DNA from: an uncultured Leptospiraceae bacterium
GTDB taxonomy: Bacteria; Spirochaetota; Leptospiria; Turneriellales; CAZHLC01
Assembly (NCBI GenBank): GCA_964532545.1
Contig: CAZHLC010000057.1
Span: 1-11,255, forward strand
Length of the DNA stretch: 11,255 bases
Direction: 5' to 3'
In this document: positions 1 through 11,255 of the stretch, one piece after another
Position numbering within the stretch: position 1 is the stretch's first letter
Layout of the letters: every line of letters begins with the position of its first letter
Program-made: the position numbers and the translations under genes
The notes under the pieces: generated by a model
Database searches by the model: none
Told to the model about the DNA's origin: nothing
Seen by the model: the letters and a program-made list of their open reading frames with translations, nothing else

Positions 1-1386
1 GATCAGCACACCACCACCGTATTGGCCCCCATGTGCAAAGGCATAGTTGCCCCCACCACCTGTTTTAGCAGAAGGAATCTCTGTGCCGCTAGAATCGTAC
101 TTGCGAACACGCCATGTTGGGCCGCCGATGTCATAGCCAATCACGATGTTATCAGCCGAATCAGTATCAATATTGTAGGGCGTTCCGCCTTCAATGCTCA
201 GTTCACCGGTAGTATTGAAAGTACCATCAGGTGAACCACTGTCATCAAATTTCATAATGCTGGCAGCACCGCCGAGATTGGCAGCCAGTACCACAAAATC
301 ACCATTGTCGATGGCCACATCGCTGGCAGTTTCACCACCACCACCATCATGCACCACGAAGCCACCCAGGCCGAAGGTGACATCAGGCCCGGCTGAACCG
401 GCAGGCGGGCCAAAACCAAATTCGCCCCCCATGCCGAGGCCAGGGTTACGAGATTCCCATAACATAAAGAGATCATGTGAGTTTACAGCATAAAGATTCT
501 GGTTACCGTCGTAGCTCTCACCCGCTGAAAAAACAAAGGCCTGATCTAGCCCATTAGAGTAAGCACTGATAAAAGTAACAAACAGACCGCTCTGAAAAAT
601 GGCTTCATTAAAAGGGAAAATCGGCCCTTCAAAAAAACCAGCTGAGCCAGCATTGACATCACCGCAGCAGGCCTTGTCTTCAGACCACCCGGTAAAGAAA
701 TAGCTGTCAGCTAAAAAAGTAATAGATTCACTAACCGGGGCTATAGATGACACCGAGCTGACCGAGTTATCAGTAAAAGTAGTGATGGTAGTATCAGTAT
801 CAAGATCTGCGACGGTAATGGTGCCCGAAGCCGTATCTTGATAGTAGAGGGCCGGGCTTTGGCCGGCACGGTGTAACATTCCCAGAACCTTACCCGAAGC
901 CTGGCTGCCATCAATATCAACCGTGCCTTCTGAGGTGCTGCCAATGCCGGTATTCGGGTCAATACCAGAAACCACGTAGACCTTACCATCGCTCTTAGTG
1001 TAGACTGCACTCAAACCAAAAGTTGTGTGAACACCGGCGCTAAAACTGATGCGGCTGGTTGAGGTGACTTCGGTGGGGTTACTGTCTTGCACCACATGAG
1101 CCGGTTTTTTAAACTTAGGAAACTGGCCAAAACCAAAATAAGGCCCCACCGATTCAGTTACGTATATCTTATGAGTAGAGCCATCAGAGCGATTTGAAGC
1201 AAAGAAAAGGGTAACAATGCCGCTGCCTTCATCAATCACCACCGCAGGGGCATAATCATCAAAACTTGATGAAATGGGAGAGTTATCTTCGAAAACAAAA
1301 CCGCGATTAAGCTCAGGAACCTTTTTGCTGTTGCCCCCACAATAAAAGGCAAGGCCCACCATAATCACACTTAGTATTTTCTTCAT
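1..1386 (-). CDS. Secreted lipoprotein with Gly-rich beta-propeller (SBBP/delta-60-like) repeats. The N-terminus is at 1386. The 3' end of the gene runs off the window edge (first 462 aa present).
   Basis: The minus-strand frame was translated by hand from the ATG at 1384-1386 to position 1 with no stop codon. The GGAG RBS lies 7 nt upstream (tataGGAGattaaaATG). The N-terminus MKKILSVIMVGLAFYCGG is a signal peptide with a lipobox-like Cys. The body is rich in G/D/T/S with repeated motifs such as VAIDNGDFVVLAANLGGAASIMKFDDSGSPDGTF, typical of SBBP beta-propeller repeats. The ORF track omits it only because it is truncated by the window edge. Confidence 0.75.
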   Translation of the reverse strand, partial: MKKILSVIMVGLAFYCGGNSKKVPELNRGFVFEDNSPISSSFDDYAPAVVIDEGSGIVTLFFASNRSDGSTHKIYVTESVGPYFGFGQFPKFKKPAHVVQDSNPTEVTSTSRISFSAGVHTTFGLSAVYTKSDGKVYVVSGIDPNTGIGSTSEGTVDIDGSQASGKVLGMLHRAGQSPALYYQDTASGTITVADLDTDTTITTFTDNSVSSVSSIAPVSESITFLADSYFFTGWSEDKACCGDVNAGSAGFFEGPIFPFNEAIFQSGLFVTFISAYSNGLDQAFVFSAGESYDGNQNLYAVNSHDLFMLWESRNPGLGMGGEFGFGPPAGSAGPDVTFGLGGFVVHDGGGGETASDVAIDNGDFVVLAANLGGAASIMKFDDSGSPDGTFNTTGELSIEGGTPYNIDTDSADNIVIGYDIGGPTWRVRKYDSSGTEIPSAKTGGGGNYAFAHGGQYGGGVLI

Positions 1387-1531
1387 TTTAATCTCCTATA
1401 GCACAATTCTGTGAATAAAATGTAAAATGACAAGATTTTTTCATCGCCCGTATTTGGCCATAAAATCAATGCTGAATTAGTTAAAGAGGTAAGAGCTATT
1501 GAGAAATACGCAGATTTTTTGGGGGGGAGTC

Positions 1532-2287
1532 TTACACCCGTGATGACAGGGTATCGCGCCCGCCAGACCAGCCATCGGCGATAAAATACGAATAGAATGA
1601 CATCGTTTTCACCACAGTTTTAGACAGGGCGAAAGAAAGCAAGGCGGGTATAGCCCGCAGGGGGTTCACCACCCGGCGGCGATTAAAGGCCCACACCCCT
1701 ACACTGGTCACAGCATGTTCGCGCTCAGCTGGCTGGTAGGTGGTTTCAGCGATCTGTTTCGAAGAAGTAATCTGGCCATCAGGTAACAGGCGAATCACTT
1801 CTTTTTTTGCGGTATCGTCACCCCAGCCTCTTGAATAGACATGGGTGGCATCTGCACCCTGCTGGTGATGGCAGGCCACCAGATGATTCAGATCAAGGTC
1901 TTGCTCGGTGAGGGCGTGATCAGCGGGCATAACCACGATTGAATTATATTTTCTTACAAACCTGCGAAACGCGCGGTTCAAATGGTATTCAAAGGCGAAG
2001 GCCATAACATGGCCCCGGCTGCCGGTCTTCTGAAAGGGCACGGGAACATTTAGTTTGTACAGGCGCTTTTTTAAATAGTCATTCAGGGGTTCAAAAAAGA
2101 CCTCATCGCGGCTCATCACCGCAAAATCAAAATCGGCCTGGTGCTTTTCAATGAAACTGATGGCATCATCAATATAATGCCGACCCTGGTCGGTTTTAAG
2201 CATAACTTTCGGCACCGATAACGGCCCCATGCGGCGCCCGTAGCCAGCAGCCATAATTAAAACCAGAGTGTCAGAGTTCTTTTTCAT
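1532..2287 (-). CDS. Nucleotidyltransferase (NTP_transferase/MobA-IspD-like fold) family protein, 251 aa
   Basis: ORF track. The N-terminal Gly-rich motif TLVLIMAAGYGRRMGPLSVPKVML matches the (L)xxAGxGxRMxxxxPKxL signature of sugar-phosphate nucleotidyltransferases (IspD/GlmU/MobA class). The C-terminal ~60 aa are atypical. No clear SD (CCCCCC) precedes the ATG. Confidence 0.65.
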   Translation of the reverse strand: MKKNSDTLVLIMAAGYGRRMGPLSVPKVMLKTDQGRHYIDDAISFIEKHQADFDFAVMSRDEVFFEPLNDYLKKRLYKLNVPVPFQKTGSRGHVMAFAFEYHLNRAFRRFVRKYNSIVVMPADHALTEQDLDLNHLVACHHQQGADATHVYSRGWGDDTAKKEVIRLLPDGQITSSKQIAETTYQPAEREHAVTSVGVWAFNRRRVVNPLRAIPALLSFALSKTVVKTMSFYSYFIADGWSGGRDTLSSRV

Positions 2288-2332
2288 AAAGGGGGGTAAA
2301 ATTTCAGATTCTGTTCAATACTTAGACGCCAT

Positions 2333-2362
2333 TTGACCTGCAAACCCAAAAAAAAGTATAAT
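2333..2362 (+). promoter_or_regulatory. Sigma70-type promoter: -35 TTGACC (2333-2338), 18-nt spacer, -10 TATAAT (2357-2362). It would drive the membrane-protein/GST genes.
   Basis: Read directly: ttgacc tgcaaacccaaaaaaaag tataat. The -10 is a perfect consensus and the -35 is near-consensus. It lies ~57 nt upstream of the ATG at 2419, in a divergent intergenic region. Confidence 0.55.
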
Positions 2363-2418
2363 AACTTGACGAGAGTTGCAGCGATTCTAGCCATTATATG
2401 CCTATCTAAGGCTTTGAA

Positions 2419-2817
2419 ATGAAACAACCAGCTGACAAACGAGTATTGGCTCTGCTGATTATTCAGGCAATTCTGGTAAACTACCAGTGCTTTTCAGCCT
2501 TTTCAGGCCATGGGGGCGACGAAGCAATGCTGATCGATTTTGGTCTGGCCTTTCTGGCGCTGATCGCTGGCTTTGTGGCGTTTTCAAGCCAACACAGAGT
2601 AGCTTATTTATTTGCAGCCCTTCTTTTCAGTGCCGATGCCCTTTACTGGGCCTACGATTTCTATTCGGTTATTGAATACCTTGATAATTCAAAGCCTGGT
2701 CTAAATTTTTCTGAACAAGTTGATATGGCCCTGAATGCCGCCCAGATGATTCTGGGGGCATTGCTGGCTTTTCTTTTCTTCAAAACTCTTAGTCAAAGCC
2801 CCATACAACCTAACTGA
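2419..2817 (+). CDS. Small integral membrane protein (hypothetical, ~4 predicted TM helices), 132 aa
   Basis: ORF track. Hydrophobic stretches VLALLIIQAILV, FGLAFLALIAGFVAF, YLFAALLFSADALYWAY and ILGALLAFLFF. AAGG lies ~8 nt upstream of the ATG. It sits downstream of the strong promoter. Confidence 0.6.
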   Translation: MKQPADKRVLALLIIQAILVNYQCFSAFSGHGGDEAMLIDFGLAFLALIAGFVAFSSQHRVAYLFAALLFSADALYWAYDFYSVIEYLDNSKPGLNFSEQVDMALNAAQMILGALLAFLFFKTLSQSPIQPN

Positions 2818-2859
2818 AATTCTTCTTGCTGCGACTGCTCAGAAAAGAGCCCTTTACCC

Positions 2860-3543
2860 ATGCTAAAACTCTACGGAACTGCGGCCAGCAACTACTATAA
2901 CAAGGTTAGAATCGCCCTGCTTGAGCGGGGTATTGAATTCGAAGAGATCTTTCAGCCCCCTTCGCAAGAAGAAGAATATCTGCAGAAAAGCGGTATGGGC
3001 AAGATACCATGTATTGAACACAATGGGCAGTTTCTTTATGAGTCTCAGGCCATCATCGAATACCTTGAAGAGGCTTTTACAGAACAACCTTCATTCTACC
3101 CCGCAGACAAAATGCAGCGGGCCATTTGCCGCCAGATCATCAACGTAACTGAACTTTATCTAGACCTGCCATTACGCCCGCTGTTTAACCAGTTTGAAAG
3201 TGGCCAGAAACCAGAGGGCCCTCTTTATGAAAGAGCCCTGCGCACCGTCGAGAAAGCCGCGGTCGCCCTGGGGCGGGTGGTAAAATTCAAACCCTTTATT
3301 ATGGGTGAGCAGATGACCTATGCCGATTGTACGGCGGCAGCTACCTGGTATATTCCCGGTAGGTTGTTAGAGATGGCCGAAACACCCAACCCCCTTGAGA
3401 AGATCGCCGGCTTTAATGAATATATGCAGATGCTCAAAGAAAGGCCCCACATTAAAAAAACCATGCGTAAACGCGATGCTACCTTCAGGGCCCGTAAGAT
3501 GGCCGAGAAAAAAGGCCTGACTAACCCTGAGCTGGCGAGCTAG
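2860..3543 (+). CDS. Glutathione S-transferase family protein, 227 aa
   Basis: ORF track. N-terminal thioredoxin-like GST domain: MLKLYGTAASNYYNKVRIALLERGIEFEE, then the cis-Pro motif GKIPCIEHNG and the ESQAIIEYLEE motif (the ES.AI..YL signature of GST N-domains). An alpha-helical C-terminal domain follows. It is 42 nt downstream of the membrane-protein gene on the same strand, so the two probably form an operon. Confidence 0.85.
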   Translation: MLKLYGTAASNYYNKVRIALLERGIEFEEIFQPPSQEEEYLQKSGMGKIPCIEHNGQFLYESQAIIEYLEEAFTEQPSFYPADKMQRAICRQIINVTELYLDLPLRPLFNQFESGQKPEGPLYERALRTVEKAAVALGRVVKFKPFIMGEQMTYADCTAAATWYIPGRLLEMAETPNPLEKIAGFNEYMQMLKERPHIKKTMRKRDATFRARKMAEKKGLTNPELAS

Positions 3544-3583
3544 TAGGTTGTTGATTTTTTCGAGTATCTTTCAAACACGCAGC

Positions 3584-4036
3584 TCAAAGAATAAGCTTAT
3601 AGGTGAGCATGGTTGAACGTTTGAAACCGTGCTTTTCATAGAGCTTCTGGGCCACAGTATTCTCAAAATCGGTGTGTAGCATCACCCTTTTGCAGTTTCT
3701 TTCTTTTTTTACATACTCAATAGCAAAGCCCAATAGGTCATTACCAATACCGCGACCGCGGTTCGACTCTGCCACGACCACATCATCGAAGAAGGCTACC
3801 GGCCCACCGAGGGCTGTTGAGATATTAAAAAGAACGTTTATCATGGCAATGACCTGGTGATTCTCACGAGCCACCAGAATTAACCCCTGATCTGGGTTTG
3901 CAAAAATCTGCTCAACACCCTGTTGCTGTAAAACACGGTCAGGTTCAAATTCAAGCTCAGCGGTGAAAAGCTCGCCCAGCAAGTCACAGATTTGTTTGAT
4001 CTCTGCTGGCTGCGCTTCGGCAAACTCGACAGCCAT
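3584..4036 (-). CDS. GNAT family N-acetyltransferase, 150 aa
   Basis: ORF track. Acetyl-CoA-binding motif A (VVVAESNRGRGIGNDLLGFAIEY, Q/RxxGxG/A) and a C-terminal YEKHGF motif typical of GNAT. The start ATG (4034-4036) lies 2 nt after the TAA stop (4039-4041) of the upstream large gene, so the two are probably translationally coupled. Confidence 0.85.
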   Translation of the reverse strand: MAVEFAEAQPAEIKQICDLLGELFTAELEFEPDRVLQQQGVEQIFANPDQGLILVARENHQVIAMINVLFNISTALGGPVAFFDDVVVAESNRGRGIGNDLLGFAIEYVKKERNCKRVMLHTDFENTVAQKLYEKHGFKRSTMLTYKLIL

Positions 4037-4038
4037 AA

Positions 4039-7000
4039 TTAAATCTGGGCCCTGATCAAATCTAATGAATAGTTATACTGTGAAGAGAGCACCAGCCTGG
4101 GTGGTTTGGTCTGCTTCTGGCTGTGGCCGAAGTTCCAGAAGCGCGAGAGACGGCGGCCCTCGGCCTCGTTATGATTCACCGGCATGGTCTCATAGTTTCG
4201 CCCACCCGGGTGTGACACAAAGTAAGTACATCCCCCCACTGAGCGTTGCAGAACAGTGTCATAAATATCAAACACCAGCTTCTGTGAAAGCTCGGCATAG
4301 GGGTGCAGGGTGAAGGTCGGGTTCCACCCTTTGTAGCGCACGCCACCTACATAGGTGCCGACCTCATCGGTGGCCCGCAGCGGAACCTGATAGCCATTGC
4401 AGGCAATTTGAAACCTTTCAGTATCGAAGTTAGCCACTTTCACCTGAATACGCTCAACCGCCGAATCGACGGGCCGCGAGGTCTGGCTGGCAAACACAGT
4501 TTCGCCCAGAACATTCCAGGGTTGCAGGGCCGAGCGCAATTCAAGCTCGATACCTTCTTTGGTGATGGCCCCGAGAGTAGGCAGTCGAAACTCAAGAAAA
4601 ACAGAATACCAGTCAGCTGAGAGTAGCTCTTCTTCGTAGTTCACATAGGCCATCACATCAAGAAAATCTTGCCATAGAAAATGGGGCAGCAGAAACTTAT
4701 CGTGTAAACGTGACTGCCAGTGAATCAAACCATGGTGATAGGGCTGCTGGTGAAAGCGCATTAACAGGGTTCGAATCAGCAGCTGCTGGGCTACACACAT
4801 CTGGTAATGGGGCGGCATTTCAAACGAACGCAGCTCAACCAGACCGAGGCGGCCGGTGGCCGAATCGGGCGAATAGAGTTTATCAATGCAGATTTCGGCC
4901 CGGTGGGTATTGCCGGTGATATCAACCAGAAAGTTGCGTAGCAGCCGGTCGAGCACATAGGGGGGCGCATCTTCACGTTTGTCGATCTGCTGCAGGGCCA
5001 GCTCAAGTTCATAAAGAATCTCATCGCGAGACTCGTCAACCCGGGGCGCCTGCGATGTGGGCCCAATAAAGAGACCGGTAAACATATAAGACAAGCTGGG
5101 GTGATGCTGCCAGAAGGTTACCAGGCTGCGCAACAGCGACGGTTCTTTAAAGAAGGGGCTCTTAGCCGCGATGGGCCCACCCAGGGTAATATGATTGCCC
5201 CCACCGGTGCCGGTAATGCGGCCATCGAGTAAAAACTTTTCGGTGCTGAGGCCGGCCAGCTCAGCAGCCTCATAGAGGTTCTGGTAAGTCTCAACCAGCT
5301 CATCAAAGTTGTGCGCCGGATGAATATTCACCTCAATTACCCCCGGGTCAGGAGTAACCTTCAGCACATTGAGGCGCTGGTCAGAGGGTGGTTCGTAACC
5401 TTCAAGAATAATTTCATAACCCAGTTTTGCGGCCACTTCATGCAGGTAAGAAACCAGCGATAAAAACTCATCGAGGGTGACCAATGGCGGCAGAAAAGCG
5501 TAAAGCTTTTCATCACGCACTTCAACACAGAGGGCCGACACAAAAAAGTCTTCTGAAACAGCCTTTGCTTTAAGGTCTTCACTACCCTGACCTGCCTCAC
5601 CCAGTTCATTAAAATTATCATCGGCCTTGGCAATGGGTGCATCGGGGCTCTTCAGTGAATTGATGGGTAGCCGATAGCCCAGGGGTGAATCACCCGGGGT
5701 GGCAAAAAGTTGCTCGCGGGGCAGCTGCCAGGCGCAGGTCTGCCATCTTTTCAGTTTAGGATTAAAACGCAGGGGCAAGACTACCCCTATGCTTTTATCG
5801 AGGCCGGCCTTCTGTATTCTGTGCAGCTTGGCCCATTCGAGTTTTTCAAAATCATTCTCGGGCTCATGCTCTTCGTTAAAATCGTGTAACTTCCACTGGT
5901 AGTACTCGCTGTCTTCAAAAGCAGGCAATGCATACTTCTCTGGCAGGGCCATGGCCTCGCAGAGCTCTCGGTTGAAAATCTGGCAGAGCCCGGTTTCAAA
6001 TTCTTTCTTTTTTATGGGATATTCTGACCACAGAGGCTGGCCTTTTTTTAACCAATACAGGTTCATCGACCAGCGGGGCAGCACCTCGCCGGGGTACCAT
6101 TTTCCCTGAGAGAACTGCAGCAGGGCTGAGCTCGAATAACGATCTTTTAATTCAAATAATAGCTTACGGGCGCACTCATACTTATGCTCACCCAGGGCCT
6201 CAGTATTCCACTGGGCAGAGTCGCGCTCTTCTTTGCCCACAAAGGTGGGCTCGCCCCCCATGGTGAGCTGCAGGCCGGTTTTGCCAAAGAACTTATCGAT
6301 GTTTTCACCAGCCACCACCAGTTTCTGCCACTGCTCAGGGGCATAGGGGCGGGTATGGCGGGGGCGCTCAAGCAGGCGCTCAACCGACATGCTGAAGTCA
6401 AAGTTGACTTCAGCTGCATCGTGGGCCCCGGTGATGGGCGAGGCACTCTGGGGTTCAGGGGTGGCCGCCAGGGGAATATGGCCTTCTGATGCAAACAGGC
6501 CCGAGGTGGCATCGAGGCCTACCCAGCCTGCGCCCGGCAGATAAACCTCGGCCCAGGCGTGCAGGTCGGTAAAATCAGCAGAAAGGCGCTCTTTCTCTTC
6601 GGCGCTCTGCAGATCGGGCACTAATTGAATGAGATAGCCAGAAACGAAGCGGGCCGCCAAGCCCATCTGGCGCAGCATCTGTACCAGCAGATAGGCGCTG
6701 TCACGGCATGAGCCCGAGCCACTTGTCAGGGTTTCGGTGGGGGTTTGCACCCCGGGCTGCATGCGAATCAGATATTTGACATCGCCTGCAATGGCACCCA
6801 CCAGGCCGCTGAGATACTCAACCGTGGGTGTGGCCTCTTTTTTGACAAACTTTGCGGTATAGTTTTTCAACTCAGTTGAATCATCTGAGTGAAAAAGAAA
6901 AGGTTTAAGCTCTTCTTTCAACCAGGGCGGGTACTCAAAGGGTATCTTTTCAGCATATTCTTCAAGAAAAAAATCAAAGGGGTTAATCACCTGCATCTCA

Positions 7001-7248
7001 GCCACCAGCTCAACATCGAACTGCAGCAGATCGGTTTTTTCAGGAAACACAAAGCGCGCCAGGTAATTGCCAAAGGGGTCTTGCTGCCAGTTGATAAAGT
7101 GCTTCTGGGGTTTAACCTCAAGCGAATAAGCGGTTACGTTGGTTTTACTGTGGGGGGCCGGCCGCAGGCGCACCACATGGGGCGCCAGATTGATCTTGCG
7201 ATCATACCTGTAGCTGGTGCTGTGTTTCAGGGCTACCCTGATTGACAT
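4039..7248 (-). CDS. Large transglutaminase-like/DUF2126-type protein, 1069 aa from the preferred ATG. The N-terminus resembles the bacterial transglutaminase N-terminal domain. A Cys-His-Asp transglutaminase-like core follows, then a long C-terminal domain.
   Basis: ORF track, frame 4039..7257. The start is moved to the ATG at 7246-7248 because GAGG lies 9 nt upstream, whereas the GTG at 7257 has no spacing to the same SD. The resulting N-terminus MSIRVALKHSTSYRYDRKINLAPHVVRLRP matches the typical N-terminus of this family. The core is GSGSCRDSAYLLVQMLRQMGLAARFVSGY ... DLHAWAEVYLPGAGWVGLDATSG (catalytic C, H, D). This ~1100-aa architecture recurs in conserved operons with circularly permuted ATP-grasp and alpha-E proteins. 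The DUF2126 label for the C-terminal domain and the operon association rest on established family knowledge, not on anything read here. Confidence 0.85.
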   Translation of the reverse strand: MSIRVALKHSTSYRYDRKINLAPHVVRLRPAPHSKTNVTAYSLEVKPQKHFINWQQDPFGNYLARFVFPEKTDLLQFDVELVAEMQVINPFDFFLEEYAEKIPFEYPPWLKEELKPFLFHSDDSTELKNYTAKFVKKEATPTVEYLSGLVGAIAGDVKYLIRMQPGVQTPTETLTSGSGSCRDSAYLLVQMLRQMGLAARFVSGYLIQLVPDLQSAEEKERLSADFTDLHAWAEVYLPGAGWVGLDATSGLFASEGHIPLAATPEPQSASPITGAHDAAEVNFDFSMSVERLLERPRHTRPYAPEQWQKLVVAGENIDKFFGKTGLQLTMGGEPTFVGKEERDSAQWNTEALGEHKYECARKLLFELKDRYSSSALLQFSQGKWYPGEVLPRWSMNLYWLKKGQPLWSEYPIKKKEFETGLCQIFNRELCEAMALPEKYALPAFEDSEYYQWKLHDFNEEHEPENDFEKLEWAKLHRIQKAGLDKSIGVVLPLRFNPKLKRWQTCAWQLPREQLFATPGDSPLGYRLPINSLKSPDAPIAKADDNFNELGEAGQGSEDLKAKAVSEDFFVSALCVEVRDEKLYAFLPPLVTLDEFLSLVSYLHEVAAKLGYEIILEGYEPPSDQRLNVLKVTPDPGVIEVNIHPAHNFDELVETYQNLYEAAELAGLSTEKFLLDGRITGTGGGNHITLGGPIAAKSPFFKEPSLLRSLVTFWQHHPSLSYMFTGLFIGPTSQAPRVDESRDEILYELELALQQIDKREDAPPYVLDRLLRNFLVDITGNTHRAEICIDKLYSPDSATGRLGLVELRSFEMPPHYQMCVAQQLLIRTLLMRFHQQPYHHGLIHWQSRLHDKFLLPHFLWQDFLDVMAYVNYEEELLSADWYSVFLEFRLPTLGAITKEGIELELRSALQPWNVLGETVFASQTSRPVDSAVERIQVKVANFDTERFQIACNGYQVPLRATDEVGTYVGGVRYKGWNPTFTLHPYAELSQKLVFDIYDTVLQRSVGGCTYFVSHPGGRNYETMPVNHNEAEGRRLSRFWNFGHSQKQTKPPRLVLSSQYNYSLDLIRAQI

Positions 7249-7340
7249 GAAACTCACCCTCTGAAAGTGAGCGGGCCCGTAAAGCAGCTTTGTTTCTTAC
7301 ACCTCATCTTATTCACTGAATAAAATGAAGTTGTTATAAA

Positions 7341-7392
7341 ATAAAAAAGCCCGCCCTTCACCCCTGGCGGGGTGTCGGGCGGGCCGGGTTTT
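7341..7392 (-). terminator. Rho-independent terminator, probably bidirectional, between the SPFH gene/repeat region and the large transglutaminase-like gene
   Basis: Read directly. A-run 7341-7348, stem GCCCGCCC (7349-7356) paired with GGGCGGGC (7377-7384), and an inner stem CACCCC/GGGGTG with loop TGGC. On the minus strand the hairpin is followed by UUUUUUAUUUUAU. On the plus strand it is followed by CGGGUUUU. Confidence 0.6.
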
Positions 7393-7435
7393 AACATCCA
7401 ACCTATGAATCGTTTCGCCCTGGCTTATCGCTCTG

Positions 7436-7573
7436 CAACGCGCCGTTCGAGCGCTATAGCACCCTAAGATTGACTTACCGCTGCCGCGGCGTCAATCTTT
7501 CGGTCAACGCGCCGTTTGAGCGCTGTAGCACCCTAAGATTGACTTACCGCTACCGCGACGTCAATCATTCAGG
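7436..7573. repeat. Tandem direct repeat, 2 copies of 69 bp (7436-7504 and 7505-7573), ~90% identical. Each copy carries an internal 7-bp inverted repeat GATTGAC-N16-GTCAATC.
   Basis: Read directly. Copy 1 is caacgcgccgttcgagcgctatagcaccctaagattgacttaccgctgccgcggcgtcaatctttcgg. Copy 2 is caacgcgccgtttgagcgctgtagcaccctaagattgacttaccgctaccgcgacgtcaatcattcagg. Copy 2 overlaps the last codons and the TGA stop (7565-7567) of the SPFH gene. The plus-strand ORF 7470..8015 reads through the repeats and is an artefact (LTYRCRGVN...LTYRYRDVN). Confidence 0.75.
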
Positions 7574-8674
7574 CTCTTTTACACCGAACAGTTTGTTCAG
7601 CTGCGATAGCAGTGGGGCCCCTGGCGAGATTGACAGGTTGGCAATTTTGTCTGAGATTCGCTCAATGTACTCCAGTTCTTTGAGCTTCATCAGGGTTGGG
7701 TTATTCTCCATCAGCCTGGCAGTATTCAGCAGGCTTCTGGTCGAAGCAGTTTCTTCACGGCGGGTGATCAGGTTAGCCTGGGCTCTTTTTTCAGCCTCGA
7801 TAACCTGGGCCAGTATGGCCTTCATCTCACCAGGCAGAATCACGTCTTTCACACCAGCGAAGATGAACTGCAGACCCATGGCCTCGCCCTGTTCTGCCAT
7901 TTTTTCAAGTACGAAGGTGCCGATTTCTTCTTTTTTTTGCAGCAGCTCTTCAAGGGTAAACATACCCACGTACTCGCGCAGAATCAGCTGGGTAAGCACA
8001 TACAGCTGGGCCTGATAATCGTTGATGTCGATTACGGCCTTGATTGGGTCTACAATGCGATATTGTACCACGAAGTTGATACGTAGGGTTACCTTGTCTC
8101 TGGTCATGATTTCTTGACCTGAGATATCAGTTTGAAGCTGACGCATATCAACCTTCTGTACCACTACCTTTACTGGCCCGTTCCAGAAGAAGTACTTACC
8201 TGGCTTTAGAACTTTTTGAAATTCACCGTTGTACAGCAGCAGGCCACGTTCAAACGAGGCCAGCTCTGCTACCTGAACCAGGCGATGAAAGGCAGGCCCA
8301 ACCAGCACTGCCTTCTCTATGGTTTCAAGCACCTCAGGGTTGCTGAGATCAACGGTCTCAAAACGATTAGTTTTCAGGGCCTTCCAGAAAGCGTATTTGC
8401 CCGCGGTCAGCACCTGAACAAAGCGACCGTCTTCGTAGCGAAGTACAATCTCTTTATCTGCGACTTCTACGACATCAAGTTCTTCTACCAGCTCTTTGTC
8501 TTTCAGGTAGAGGTTTAGATTCTTAGAAGGCGCAAATGGCAGATTTACATCAAAACGTTCAACGCTGTAGTTGGCAAACGGTGAAAACACGTATTTACCA
8601 GGTTTAAGCAGACGCTCAAAGTCGCCGTCTTTGTACAGCAGAGCACGTTCATCTTGATTTACTTTTACTCTCAT
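7565..8674 (-). CDS. SPFH/band-7 (stomatin-prohibitin-flotillin-HflK/C) domain protein, 369 aa. It has no N-terminal TM helix and carries three tandem copies of the SPFH N-terminal beta segment.
   Basis: ORF track frame 7565..8845, with the start moved to the internal ATG at 8672-8674 preceded by a perfect AGGAGG RBS 6 nt upstream (ccTCCTCC on the plus strand at 8681-8686). The track's 5' extension would begin at a TTG and runs through GC-rich palindromes. Band-7 core: QLQTDISGQEIMTRDKVTLRINFVVQYRIVDPIKAV ... IFAGVKDVILPGEMKAILAQVIEAEKRAQ. Internal repeats: ALLYKDGDFERLLKPGKYVFSPF, VLRYEDGRFVQVLTAGKYAFWKAL and LLLYNGEFQKVLKPGKYFFWNGP. Confidence 0.85.
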   Translation of the reverse strand: MRVKVNQDERALLYKDGDFERLLKPGKYVFSPFANYSVERFDVNLPFAPSKNLNLYLKDKELVEELDVVEVADKEIVLRYEDGRFVQVLTAGKYAFWKALKTNRFETVDLSNPEVLETIEKAVLVGPAFHRLVQVAELASFERGLLLYNGEFQKVLKPGKYFFWNGPVKVVVQKVDMRQLQTDISGQEIMTRDKVTLRINFVVQYRIVDPIKAVIDINDYQAQLYVLTQLILREYVGMFTLEELLQKKEEIGTFVLEKMAEQGEAMGLQFIFAGVKDVILPGEMKAILAQVIEAEKRAQANLITRREETASTRSLLNTARLMENNPTLMKLKELEYIERISDKIANLSISPGAPLLSQLNKLFGVKEPE

Positions 8675-8790
8675 TTTCGACCTCCTTTTAAAAATGATTG
8701 CAGTAACGGTCGCAGCAGCAGCCCTCGTAGACCAAAAGACGGAGAACGATTTAAGTAGCAGCGCTTTCTGTGTAACGCAGCCCGCAGCCA

Positions 8791-8826
8791 GGGCCCCGGG
8801 TGAGCGCGAAGCCCAGGCCCCGGGGC
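8791..8826. promoter_or_regulatory. GC-rich dyad-symmetric element upstream of the SPFH gene. It contains a perfect 12-bp palindrome GGCCCCGGGGCC (8815-8826) and a partner GGGCCCCGGG (8791-8800) that can form a 9-bp stem with it. Candidate operator or REP-like element.
   Basis: Read directly: ccagggccccgggtgagcgcgaagcccaggccccggggccgg. No T-tract on either strand, so it is not a terminator. It lies ~120-150 nt upstream of the SPFH start. Confidence 0.35.
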
Positions 8827-9051
8827 CGGCGGCAGGCAGATTCAAACAGGTATTGCTGGTACGGTATCTATCGTTCTGCTGGTTTCTGATTTACTGCCGG
8901 TCTGTGCGCACTGAGCAGGCCCAATTGAACCTGGCCAGAACACATAGCCGGCTGAGAAGCTGGCTACTGCAGCCGGGTAGTGGCAATTTTAACGAGTTGC
9001 CTTCTCGTTCGTAACCGATTAGCAGTCGGGCGCTGAATAATCTTCAGCAAA

Positions 9052-9166
9052 GGTGGGATTCGAACCCGAAAACCTGAATGGTTTTTTACCATGGGGGTAT
9101 CGGAAGGAGTCTAACCTTCGACAGACAGGTTATGAGCCTGTTGCTCTTACACTGAGCTACGTTACC
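9052..9166 (-). tRNA. tRNA-Met(CAU)-like element, aberrant. The 5' half is intact and a T-loop motif is present, but a ~57-nt insertion is embedded and no complementary 3' acceptor strand exists. It is a tRNA pseudogene/relic or a tRNA-mimic ncRNA.
   Basis: Minus-strand read: GGTAACG-TA-GCTC-AGTGTAA-GAGC-A-ACAGG-CTCATAA-CCTGT. This gives an acceptor 5' strand, U8A9, a D-arm, and an anticodon arm with U33, anticodon CAU (plus strand 9132-9134) and A37. It closely resembles the E. coli elongator tRNA-Met sequence as recalled from memory (GGCTACGTAGCTCAG...CTCATAA); no sequence search was run. Next come 57 nt (plus 9068-9124) containing the hairpins GAAGG-TTAGACT-CCTTC and ATGG-TAAAAAA-CCAT. Then GGGTTCGAATCCCACC (plus 9052-9067). 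The expected 3' acceptor strand CGTTACC-N-CCA is absent anywhere nearby. Confidence 0.5.
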
Positions 9167-9270
9167 AAACGTGCATCACCGATTTAACCAGCAAGTATAC
9201 GACAAGGCAGGGCCTCTCGCACTGCAAGACTGTAAAAATCTCTGCGTTAGCCGTGATAATATGATGCAAA

Positions 9271-9291
9271 CCTCACCAGGTTATGGTGAGG
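9271..9291 (-). terminator. Candidate intrinsic terminator for rtcB (8-bp stem CCTCACCA/TGGTGAGG, loop GGTTA)
   Basis: Read directly. On the minus strand the hairpin is followed by UUUGCAUCAUAUUAUC, which is moderately U-rich. It lies ~75 nt downstream of the rtcB stop. A weaker hairpin ACTCG-CGTCT-CGAGT (9316-9330) is followed on the minus strand by UUUCUGUGGCUUUUGG, and another hairpin overlaps the stop codon (9353-9368). Confidence 0.4.
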
Positions 9292-9361
9292 AGAACTGAA
9301 CCAAAAGCCACAGAAACTCGCGTCTCGAGTAGGCAAGCCGCGGCCTTAGTTGGGGATATGA

Positions 9362-10570
9362 TTATCCCTTAACGCAGACGACCTGCTTCAGGCGGTACAC
9401 TGGTTCAACCAGGTCAGCCTGGGCAGCCATGACTGCGTCAATGTTTTTGTAAGCGCCCGGGGTTTCATCAAGCACCGAGGCATCTTTTTTACATTCGACA
9501 CCTTCAGTGGCCTTGACGTGATCTTTCACACTGAAGCGGCGCTTGGCTTCAGAGCGTGACATCACCCGCCCGGCCCCATGTGAGCACGATGAAAAAGACT
9601 GGGGGTTACCCAGACCACGCACAATGTACGACCGTGCACCCATCGAACCGGGTATAATGCCCATCTCACCCTCTCGGGCACTGATGGCGCCCTTACGGGT
9701 AACATAAACATCTTCACCGAAGTGATGTTCAAGTGAAGCATAGTTGTGGTGGCAGTTGATCTCTTTGCCCACAATCTTTGCTTTTTTCTTCAGGCCAGAA
9801 TTGACCGCCTTAAGAACCCTGGCCAGCATAACCTCGCGGTTCAGCGCTGCATATTGCTGGGCCCACTTAACGGCATTCCAGTAATCGTCGAAATTCTGGG
9901 TACCTTCGGTGAGGTAGGCCAGATCTCGATCGGGCAGGCTGGCGTTAGCCTTCAGCATCTCTTCTTTAGCCTTAGAGATGAAGTATGTACCAATCTTATT
10001 GCCAATGCCCCGCGAGCCAGAATGCAGCATCAGCCAGACATTGTCTTCTTCATCAAGGCAGACCTCGATGAAGTGATTGCCACCGCCGAGAGTGCCAACC
10101 TGTTTTGCGGGGTTCTTGGCCGAGCGCAGCTTAGGGTGACGGCTGATGATCTCATCAAACCCCTCACTCACTTTGCGCCAGGCATTCAGTGAAGCCGTAG
10201 GCGCTTCACCAAACTCGCCACCGCGGCCGTTGCCCACGGGCACCAGTTTTTCGATCTCTGCTCGAATGGCACCCAGGTGATCGGGCAAATCAGCAGCATC
10301 GGTGCTGAGTTTTGCGGCAATCATACCACAGCCAAGGTCAACGCCTACAGCTGCGGGTATAATAGCCTTTTTGGTAGGAATCACCGACCCCACAGTGGCG
10401 CCCTTACCAAGGTGGCAGTCAGGCATAAGCGCCACATGCTTATAGATAAAGGGCATTTTGGCGACTTTTTCAGCCTGAATCAGGGTTTGCTCATCGACGG
10501 CGACGCCGTTCGTCCACCGTTTGATGAGCCCGTCTTTGCCGACGTCTCGTTTAACATGTGTCACTTGCAT
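9362..10570 (-). CDS. rtcB: RNA-splicing ligase RtcB (3'-phosphate/5'-hydroxyl nucleic acid ligase), 402 aa
   Basis: ORF track. MQVTHVKRD...HVALMPDCHLGKGATVGSVIPT (metal-binding Cys/His), GGGNHFIEVC, SGSRGIGNKIG, NCHHNYA and SCSHGAGR are all hallmark RtcB motifs, and the length is close to E. coli RtcB. The RBS AGGAGC lies 8 nt upstream of the ATG. Confidence 0.92.
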   Translation of the reverse strand: MQVTHVKRDVGKDGLIKRWTNGVAVDEQTLIQAEKVAKMPFIYKHVALMPDCHLGKGATVGSVIPTKKAIIPAAVGVDLGCGMIAAKLSTDAADLPDHLGAIRAEIEKLVPVGNGRGGEFGEAPTASLNAWRKVSEGFDEIISRHPKLRSAKNPAKQVGTLGGGNHFIEVCLDEEDNVWLMLHSGSRGIGNKIGTYFISKAKEEMLKANASLPDRDLAYLTEGTQNFDDYWNAVKWAQQYAALNREVMLARVLKAVNSGLKKKAKIVGKEINCHHNYASLEHHFGEDVYVTRKGAISAREGEMGIIPGSMGARSYIVRGLGNPQSFSSCSHGAGRVMSRSEAKRRFSVKDHVKATEGVECKKDASVLDETPGAYKNIDAVMAAQADLVEPVYRLKQVVCVKG

Positions 10571-10610
10571 GTGTTTGCTCCTAAATTAGAATTTCGTTCT
10601 TACATGTAAA

Positions 10611-10774
10611 GCAGGGGCCGCCCTTAAAACCCTGGCTTTAAGGGCAGGCCCCTGGCTCTTGAACACCTTTAAATCACACAAGCAGGCGAAAACCCTGAGG
10701 TTTGCTAAACGCAAACCCACGGCCAGAGGGGCCCTGCGGGCTCGTTTTCGCCTGCTTTCGCCCCTGAGGGGCGA
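10611..10774 (-). promoter_or_regulatory. Highly structured intergenic region or rtcB leader. It holds a 15-bp bulged hairpin (10614-10652), a 14-bp long-range inverted repeat (10680-10693 with 10744-10757) enclosing the hairpin GGTTTGC-TAAAC-GCAAACC (10699-10717) and a GC-rich segment, plus the hairpin TCGCCCC-TGA-GGGGCGA (10758-10774).
   Basis: Read directly. GGGGCCGCCCTTAAA[ACCCTGGC]TTTAAGGG(C-A)GGCCCC. AAGCAGGCGAAAAC ... GTTTTCGCCTGCTT are perfect reverse complements. No room is left for a promoter between the first hairpin and the rtcB RBS, which implies read-through or attenuator-type control from upstream. Confidence 0.45.
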
Positions 10775-10784
10775 TACGTGTGCT

Positions 10785-11237
10785 CTAAAGATGTTCGCGG
10801 TGCACAATATGGTCAGCCGCATGGGTTGCAGCGAATGCGTCTGGTTTGACCACAGGCTCAAGGCCAAGGGCCCTGATGTACGCAATCGCTTCTCTGGTTA
10901 CCACGTTTGAGCGGTGCTTTGGGTCTGTATTCAGATCAAGGTGCACCGAAAACGGGCGTGACCCAACTGAGTCTTCAAGAGCCAGCGCGGCCAGGCTGGC
11001 CAGCTCTACTTCTTTCCAGAGCCTTTCTCTCAGTGAAAGACGGCGTTCGATGCGGTTCGTATCATGAAAGATACGCGCCCCGTGCCGCGAATCAATGTGA
11101 ATGATAATCACAGTGACAAAATCTGTGCTCTTGCCCCTTACCTGTGAATCACACCCGACGTAGATTCCTGTTTCTAGAGAAGAGCCCTGAATCATGTTTC
11201 TGATCTTACGATAGTCAAAATCAAGTGTCAGTCTCAT
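10785..11237 (-). CDS. Hypothetical protein, 150 aa, co-oriented immediately upstream of rtcB. It may have an RNase H-like alpha/beta fold with acidic residues, but this is speculative.
   Basis: ORF track. Strong RBS AGGAGAG 5 nt upstream of the ATG. Pattern GIYVGCDSQ ... VTVIIIHIDSRHG ... HLDLNTD ... HAADH (a hydrophobic strand followed by D-S, with later acidic/His clusters). No confident family assignment is possible without a search. Coordinates follow the track. My manual indexing of the last lines is off by 1 nt. Confidence 0.6.
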   Translation of the reverse strand: MRLTLDFDYRKIRNMIQGSSLETGIYVGCDSQVRGKSTDFVTVIIIHIDSRHGARIFHDTNRIERRLSLRERLWKEVELASLAALALEDSVGSRPFSVHLDLNTDPKHRSNVVTREAIAYIRALGLEPVVKPDAFAATHAADHIVHREHL

Positions 11238-11255
11238 TGAACTCTCCTATTTTTT

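Follow-up and report, generated by a model that had tools for sequence, protein, structure and literature searches.

Nested palindromic hairpins between a DUF458 gene and rtcB in an uncultured Leptospiraceae bacterium: repeat-like cluster or regulatory RNA?

Introduction

What kind of element is the dense set of nested inverted repeats that lies just upstream of rtcB, the gene for an RNA 3'-phosphate ligase, in an uncultured Leptospiraceae bacterium? The question arises from a contig of 11,255 bp (GenBank assembly GCA_964532545.1, contig CAZHLC010000057.1, positions 1 to 11,255, here called the window), in which rtcB and a gene for an RNase H-like protein of the DUF458/YkuK family, both on the minus strand, flank a spacer of 214 nt (10571-10784). 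An initial annotation of this DNA viewed the spacer as a multi-helix junction RNA, that is, an attenuator, a protein-binding leader or a riboswitch-like element, and named a family of repetitive extragenic palindromic (REP) sequences as the alternative. The anatomy that was described and its departure from chance are borne out by the present analysis, while the tests that were run gave no support to the junction RNA, the attenuator or the protein-binding leader.

We place the probability at roughly 0.4 that the spacer is a lineage-specific cluster of palindromic hairpins, either derived from terminators or resembling REPs and bacterial interspersed mosaic elements (BIMEs), which acts generically; such a cluster fits modestly better than a conserved regulatory RNA. 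This reading is preferred because the palindromes are nearly perfect and strand-symmetric, the units are weakly related to one another and to a terminator, the element is absent from relatives, and it is positioned at a stop codon within an operon. The action of the element is very probably in cis and at the RNA level, from the minus strand, which is the one transcribed; a role as a conserved or ligand-sensing RNA regulator of rtcB is not supported. The material for the element itself consists of the window and three short contigs with the same genes (L081, L082 and L307).

Structure of the spacer

All four inverted repeats on which the initial annotation rested can be read directly in the sequence (Table 1). 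The largest structure, unit 1, is bounded by a perfect 14-nt inverted repeat (listed as I22), whose arms at 10680-10693 and 10744-10757 stand 50 nt apart, and its fold reaches -43.2 kcal/mol on either strand. Hairpin 1, also referred to as unit 2, folds with -34.0 kcal/mol on the minus strand versus -30.5 kcal/mol on the plus strand, as the minus strand adds one G.U and one C-G pair that close the CAGG tetraloop. Its closeness to the ribosome-binding site of rtcB had been correctly described, the distance from the end of the hairpin to the Shine-Dalgarno sequence being about 30 nt, and the start codon of rtcB occupies 10570-10568. Directly after hairpin 1 a start-stop mini open reading frame (ORF), AUGUAA (10601-10606, minus strand), sits inside the palindrome ACAUGU, and a second ACAUGU, in codons 4-6 of rtcB, can pair with it, loosely enclosing the rtcB ribosome-binding site.

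Folding of the minus strand yielded strong structure and added a basal helix, P1, in which 10796-10784 and 10782-10778 pair with 10679-10675 and 10673-10661 (18 pairs and a single G/A mismatch). P1 is found in both the minimum free energy (MFE) structure and the centroid of folds of 270 nt and 451 nt, and hairpin A and the 78-nt unit 1 lie inside it, in a domain of 136 nt (10796-10661). The extent of the structured region had thus been drawn too small, since P1 carries it as far as 10796. The last four codons of the DUF458 gene and its stop codon UAG fall within P1, so that the structured domain begins inside the upstream reading frame. P1 contains two G.U pairs, which would be A.C mismatches if the plus strand were the RNA; beyond these two and the one in hairpin 1, the helices of the cluster are almost all perfect Watson-Crick, which is why the plus strand folds almost equally well. 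The advantage of the transcribed strand amounts to about 7.6 kcal/mol across 150 nt and, together with the three G.U pairs, is suggestive of selection at the RNA level, as far as predicted folds can indicate it.

The claim that such a density of repeats is above chance also stood. The spacer holds three perfect hairpins of at least 7 bp where 0.067 are expected (P ~0.001), and besides the 14-nt repeat the contig has no perfect inverted repeat of at least 12 nt within 100 nt (0.065 expected). For the 214-nt spacer the folding energy is -103.2 kcal/mol (z -6.0) on the minus and -97.3 kcal/mol (z -5.7) on the plus strand, and in a sliding scan of 446 segments of 150 nt, positions 10651-10800 ranked at the top on both strands (z -6.8 and -6.7).

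Table 1. Features of the spacer and of its surroundings, with positions in the window
Feature	Position	Strand	Details
DUF458/YkuK gene, upstream	10785..11237	minus	150-aa RNase H-like protein; Pfam PF04308, E 2e-26
Basal helix P1, 5' arm	10778..10796	minus	GAACAUCUUUAGA-G-CACAC; contains stop codon UAG, 10787-10785
Hairpin A	10758..10774	minus	perfect 7-bp stem, 3-nt loop (UCGCCCC UCA GGGGCGA), -12.2 kcal/mol
Unit 1	10680..10757	minus	78-nt palindromic unit; 14-bp perfect helix (AAGCAGGCGAAAAC / GUUUUCGCCUGCUU) capped by a three-way junction
Sigma-54-like site, weak	10711..10725	minus	TGGCCGTGGGTTTGC; centre of unit 1; sole match of the contig to TGGC-N7-TTGC, the -24/-12 spacing of sigma-54
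Inner hairpin of unit 1	10699..10717	minus	perfect 7-bp stem, 5-nt loop (GGUUUGC GUUUA GCAAACC)
Basal helix P1, 3' arm	10661..10679	minus	GUGUG-A-UUUAAAGGUGUUC
Hairpin 1 (unit 2), as read	10613-10653; 10612-10654 with one extra C-G pair		AGGGGCC GCCCTTAAA / TTTAAGGGC (A bulge) GGCCCCT
Unit 2, as folded	10612..10654	minus	19-pair stem, one bulged U, CAGG tetraloop; listed inverted repeat I15 and folding
AU-rich segment 3' of hairpin 1	10571..10611	minus	rtcB Shine-Dalgarno sequence AGGAG, 10582-10578; start-stop AUGUAA, 10606-10601
rtcB, downstream of the hairpin element	9362..10570	minus	RNA 3'-phosphate ligase gene; Pfam PF01139, E 3e-127
tRNA-Met(CAT)-like gene	9092-9166	minus	60.8 bits, one acceptor-stem mismatch, no CCA; Rfam scan and ARAGORN
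Intrinsic terminator after the Band-7 gene	7349..7384	minus	GC stem and U6; hairpin weakly akin to unit 2

Kinship and distribution of the palindromic units

Units 1 and 2 share the elements CAGGGUUUU...CCUGCUU in the same order, and in a gap-tolerant local alignment their similarity has a P of 0.002, or 0.0015 with a null that preserves structure. An alignment of unit 2 with the terminator hairpin at 7349-7384 likewise takes in both arms as well as loop and tail; its P is 0.001-0.002, and it holds in the same orientation only (reverse orientation, P 0.11). Once some seven comparisons are allowed for, this kinship, as judged from sequence, is suggestive. Three hairpin units (unit 1, unit 2 and 7349-7384) thus occur within 11 kb, each just downstream of a gene on the minus strand. 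The initial annotation had noted a recurrence of part of hairpin 1 in 7349-7384 and had offered a REP-like family as its second explanation; the recurrence holds, weakly, under gap-tolerant alignment (P ~0.002) and is lost under strict scoring and in nhmmer, and the REP-like alternative gains some support from the weak kinship of both large units and the terminator hairpin in one orientation, seen within a single 11-kb contig.

No homolog of the element was recovered by blastn and nhmmer in 177 rtcB and DUF458 loci, and a covariance model of the multi-helix domain, run over about 1.3 Mb of such loci, had as its best foreign match an unrelated GC-rich site at E 0.03; overall, these three methods covered about 185 loci. 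Phage and plasmid collections likewise held no match to the element, and an exact 14-mer scan of viral contigs returned single chance matches, never both arms. Conservation upstream of rtcB had been named beforehand as the property on which a regulatory RNA would depend, and the structure is absent in all of the relatives retrieved, about 170 rtcB loci searched by sequence and by structure; these relatives are distant, the best RtcB identity in the collections searched being 72%. The only further copies are those on L081, L082 and L307, which are 100% identical to the window across the spacer and make four copies in all, with no variation from which covariation could be read.

A repeat-like or terminator-derived cluster

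If the spacer is a repeat-like or terminator-derived cluster, it would lie within a polycistronic DUF458-rtcB transcript; no promoter-like site was called in the spacer and the structure begins in the upstream coding region, which is consistent with read-through transcription. The very stable helices would act generically, by blocking 3'-to-5' decay of the upstream cistron and by causing some leaky termination or pausing, and their double-stranded stems of about 19-22 bp might be open to cutting by RNase III-type enzymes. Any such decay barrier, leaky termination or cutting would uncouple the levels of the DUF458 and rtcB cistrons, and the stop codon buried in P1 may dampen termination or translation of DUF458, as for REPs near stop codons. 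REPs serve as barriers to mRNA decay, act as weak attenuators and down-regulate the upstream gene when they lie near its stop codon, roles that match what the anatomy of the cluster would allow.

The comparison with REPs and BIMEs, such as the malE-malF REPs of E. coli, extends to form and distribution. In both cases GC-rich palindromic units cluster between two cistrons, directly behind a stop codon, and the units in the window are lineage-specific, nearly strand-symmetric and accompanied by a weakly related unit elsewhere on the contig; their long Watson-Crick helices and tiny loops look like those typical of young palindromic repeats rather than of a ligand-binding aptamer. They differ from classical REPs in being longer (43 and 78 nt), more perfect and nested in an added basal helix that reaches into coding sequence. 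Intercistronic processing or stabiliser hairpins, among them the RNase III sites of phage T7 and the hairpins of Rhodobacter puf, offer another parallel, as they too are long irregular hairpins between the cistrons of one transcript with double-stranded segments of about two helical turns, and by analogy the position and stability of the cluster would fit a role in segmental mRNA stability. There is no homology in sequence or structure to these examples, which are usually single hairpins, whereas the window holds a nested cluster.

Several observations weigh against a repeat-like cluster. Under strict scoring the spacer is no more similar than chance to the other intergenic regions of the contig, and nhmmer found no cross-matches among the units; their similarity is weak and depends on a gap-tolerant score. 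Two of the four matches to the motif that had been proposed as recurrent lie in coding sequence. A classical BIME would not combine large units with small hairpins unrelated to them, as this cluster does; no REP head of the conserved GTAG type was seen in the cluster, nor any target-site duplication flanking the units when these were read from the sequence. Lastly, the buried stop codon and a 12-nt complement in the DUF458 coding region, described below, hint at more than a generic hairpin cluster.

Other mobile or repeated elements were considered and rejected. A miniature inverted-repeat transposable element would be in keeping with the perfect 14-nt terminal repeats, but their flanks lack a direct duplication (on the plus strand ...CACAC|AAGCAGG and CCTGCTT|TCGCC; around P1, CCGC|GAAC ... 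GUUC|AAGA). An integron attC site (RYYYAAC...GTTRRRY) is contradicted by arms that end in CGAAAAC / GTTTTCG, the wrong purine/pyrimidine pattern, and by a perfect stem with no extrahelical bases. Readings akin to a retron or an omega RNA would call for a reverse transcriptase or TnpB, neither of which is present, and the RNA is missing from DUF458 homologs elsewhere.

Relatives of rtcB and DUF458

In the closest relatives of rtcB the slot of the spacer is filled by tRNA genes, on the same strand and 23-200 nt upstream of rtcB. Three loci (L172, L173 and L083) carry tRNA-Gln and tRNA-Asp directly upstream of rtcB, and a fourth (L174) has tRNA-Lys 23 nt before the rtcB start codon; in L172 and L083 a hairpin unrelated to those of the window separates the last tRNA from the rtcB ribosome-binding site. 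An origin of the element from tRNA was rejected, as it matched neither the tRNA-Gln/Asp region of L172 nor a tRNA model.

A further conserved feature lies farther upstream in some of these relatives and in the DUF458 locus L163. A conserved TTGAC promoter and leader (L172, ~5100-5330; L174, ~2940-3180; L163, ~1590-1790) ends in a conserved terminator, GCAAAGGCGAACC-loop-GGUUCGCCUUUUUU, whose 5' arm can pair with an upstream GCCUUUGUC. The leader, for which no Rfam match was obtained, is a candidate transcription attenuator of the operon family. It is followed by a small basic ORF and then by DUF458 (L163) or by tRNAs and rtcB (L172, L174 and L083); the small ORF was tried as ArfA, which Pfam did not bear out, giving a weak DUF7230 match only. 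Because the promoter, leader and small ORF found ahead of DUF458 in L163 are the same as those ahead of the tRNAs and rtcB in L172 and L174, DUF458 and rtcB plausibly belong to one operon type, with the control region of the present locus lying beyond the end of the window.

DUF458 homologs are not otherwise linked to rtcB. On phage-like contigs (L164, L168-L171 and L181-L184) DUF458/YkuK genes are embedded in arrays of tRNA genes, some of them about 30 nt after a tRNA, an arrangement that points to a tRNA- or RNA-related role of this uncharacterised nuclease family. Structured RNA as a general trait downstream of DUF458 was rejected, as only two of nine homolog loci showed it, L165 (z -4.9) and L184 (within the first 75 nt); the copies L164-L167 are identical to one another. 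In L165 the 207 nt that follow a 56%-identical DUF458 gene (818-1025) are highly structured and contain a 78-nt unit with a perfect 10-bp inverted repeat at its ends and then a strong hairpin. This region has no sequence similarity to the element of the window, and some assemblies call a 55-aa ORF there.

The surrounding RNA-repair locus

The locus is a known RNA-repair cassette of RtcB, a tRNA-like RNA and a Band-7 protein: the RtcB and Band_7 domains are both present, together with the tRNA-like gene at 9092-9166, and the arrangement of rtcB, one or more tRNAs and an SPFH gene recurs in L172, L174 and Methylomicrobium loci. RtcB has been described with Y RNAs or a band-7-associated tRNA (bioRxiv 10.1101/312249), and a passage of the same preprint attributes the RtcB / band-7-associated tRNA / YrlA system to Burroughs and Aravind 2016. 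A Band-7 gene is also noted inside the rtc locus of Pseudomonas aeruginosa (PMC13086221). Among the proteobacterial rtcB loci of the comparison (L006-L157), a Band-7 gene is often found upstream, or tRNA-like genes are found between rtcB and Band-7. In a PADLOC search the neighbouring proteins in the window had no match to a defence system.

Between rtcB and the Band-7/SPFH gene the minus strand has about 685 nt of non-coding sequence (8677-9361), which includes the tRNA-like gene, the only one found by ARAGORN, with none in the hairpin cluster. A second T-arm-like sequence, GGGTTCGAATCCC, lies near 9060 and an anticodon-arm-like sequence, CCGACTGCTAATCGG, near 9020, and an 8-bp stem, GCUGGUUA / UAGCCAGC, encloses these pieces and the tRNA-like gene. 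In the homologous region downstream of rtcB, the YrlA model of Rfam scored below threshold in L174 (40.7 bits) and L172 (33.4 bits). From its sequence, the RNA of 8677-9361 looks like the known band-7-associated tRNA / YrlA RNA, here without an adjacent Ro (Rsr) gene. The Band-7/SPFH ORF (7565-8845) has a listed TTG start at 8845; because alignment with homologs begins only at residue 54-59, an ATG near 8677 is probably the true start, and the first 56 codons are likely to be sequence of the non-coding RNA. Directly after the SPFH stop codon follow two tandem direct repeats of 66-69 nt (7436-7570; 92% identical), each with a hairpin AAGATTGAC...GTCAATCTT, and next the terminator at 7349-7384; the region 7258-7580 as a whole folds with a z of -6.8.

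Alternative explanations

It is improbable that the spacer is a cis-regulatory leader or attenuator of rtcB, whether as a ligand- or protein-sensing junction RNA or as a translation-coupled switch in which ribosomes completing the DUF458 frame would melt P1 and so alter the downstream pairing. The stop codon within P1 would suit such a switch, as would a 12-nt perfect complement (listed as repeat I25) between the DUF458 coding segment 10974-10985 on the minus strand and 10652-10663, a stretch that covers the linker together with the base of hairpin 1. This complement has a P of ~0.003 against shuffled flanks, its pairing cannot coexist with part of P1 or with the base of hairpin 1, and along with the buried stop codon it may keep the cis-regulatory possibility alive, at least in folding models; the same coding segment is able to pair with the Shine-Dalgarno region, and does so, rather than with 10652-10663, in the MFE structure of 451 nt. 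Hairpin 1 itself is terminator-like, being GC-rich, very stable, similar to the hairpin of 7349-7384 and close to the Shine-Dalgarno sequence, but its stem is far longer than is usual for Rho-independent terminators, and its tail on the minus strand, GCUUUACAUG, has three consecutive U at most versus the U6 of the genuine terminator at 7349-7384. No helix of the cluster is followed by a U-tract, and a terminator scan called nothing in 10571-10784. Nor is the start of rtcB clearly sequestered: in the ensemble the Shine-Dalgarno sequence and the AUG, both partly paired, have mean unpaired probabilities of 0.30 and 0.52, and the local fold contains no dedicated anti-Shine-Dalgarno helix. The spacer had no match in a scan of the whole window with Rfam 15, even at E<=10, and for the 291-nt region 10540-10830 the best matches were eukaryotic microRNA precursor models (16-22 bits versus gathering thresholds of 80-100), which are generic hairpin matches. 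Perfect helices with small loops leave scant room for a binding pocket, conservation upstream of rtcB is absent in every relative retrieved, and those relatives have a different, conserved, attenuator-like leader far upstream, before the small ORF, which suggests that control of the operon lies elsewhere. On these grounds the riboswitch-like junction RNA, the attenuator and the protein-binding leader of the initial annotation are not supported. Control at the level of DNA is the least credible of the explanations weighed here and very unlikely. It would make TGGCCG-N5-TTGCG (10725-10711) a sigma-54 promoter of rtcB flanked by the 14-bp repeat, with the palindromes as activator or repressor sites, and it takes up the strand symmetry of the palindromes as well as the fact that the contig has no other match of this kind than the site, which occupies the middle of the inverted repeat, on the strand of rtcB and 141 nt ahead of its start. 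The strict motif lies at most 500 nt upstream of rtcB in 48 of 168 loci; setting aside the identical copies L081 and L082, 46 remain, nearly all with a strong CTGGCACG-N4-TTGCAATA, and strong sites of this type lie upstream of proteobacterial homologs. Against this, the site of the window scores 1.4 bits with a position weight matrix, compared with at least 14.7 for real sites, and ranks only seventh in the contig, where about one match to TGGC-N7-TTGC is expected by chance. The closest relatives have no such site, the 11 kb hold no gene for an RtcR-like enhancer-binding protein, and four unrelated perfect palindromes are unlikely operators.

The explanation that fares best after the repeat-like cluster, though we still consider it unlikely, is a dedicated stable non-coding RNA, in which the 136-nt domain would be excised from the operon transcript to serve RtcB, DUF458 or the Band-7 protein as a cofactor, decoy or substrate mimic. 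In Salmonella the operon order is rsr-yrlB-yrlA-rtcBA, and by analogy with yrlB/yrlA just upstream of rtcB the RNA would occupy the slot in which relatives carry their tRNA genes. That slot in the closest relatives (tRNA-Gln with tRNA-Asp, or tRNA-Lys), the DUF458 homologs within phage tRNA arrays, the tRNA-like or YrlA-like RNA already present in the cassette downstream of rtcB and the published link of RtcB to Y RNAs or a band-7-associated tRNA (bioRxiv 10.1101/312249) all make such an RNA conceivable, as does the way in which P1 closes a compact domain whose G.U pairs favour the sense strand. The likeness to the non-coding RNA genes of rtcB operons, in Salmonella and in RtcB/Band-7 cassettes, therefore lies in a structured RNA directly upstream of rtcB, in the tRNA genes found in its slot, and in the tRNA-like/YrlA-like RNA and Band-7 gene downstream. 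The element itself differs from these RNAs, since 10540-10830 has no tRNA or YrlA match at E<=10, no cloverleaf or T-arm (GGUUCGAAUCC) and no Ro-binding features, and no homolog was found in other cassettes. With no second example in the loci searched there is no covariation, the 5' arm of P1 is coding sequence, and the perfect helices suggest a young element and not a long-maintained RNA. Slightly more doubtful still is the fuller proposal that the domain 10796-10661, with or without hairpin 1, is an undescribed RNA component of the RtcB cassette that replaces the tRNA genes and is released as a cofactor, decoy or sensor, perhaps with the stop codon in P1 and the 12-nt complement coupling it to DUF458 translation.

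Implications

If the spacer is indeed a repeat-like or terminator-derived cluster, it would be an ordinary lineage-specific set of hairpins whose chief value is one of caution, in that extreme folding z-scores and nested perfect repeats beside an interesting gene do not make a riboswitch. If, on the other hand, the element should be single-copy and processed, a non-tRNA RNA in the tRNA slot would be a new partner for RtcB cassettes, which are already known to recruit tRNA-like RNAs whose role is an open question. The context may serve the study of bacterial RNA repair more than the element does, with its tRNA genes upstream of rtcB, its DUF458 genes within tRNA arrays and its attenuator-like leader.

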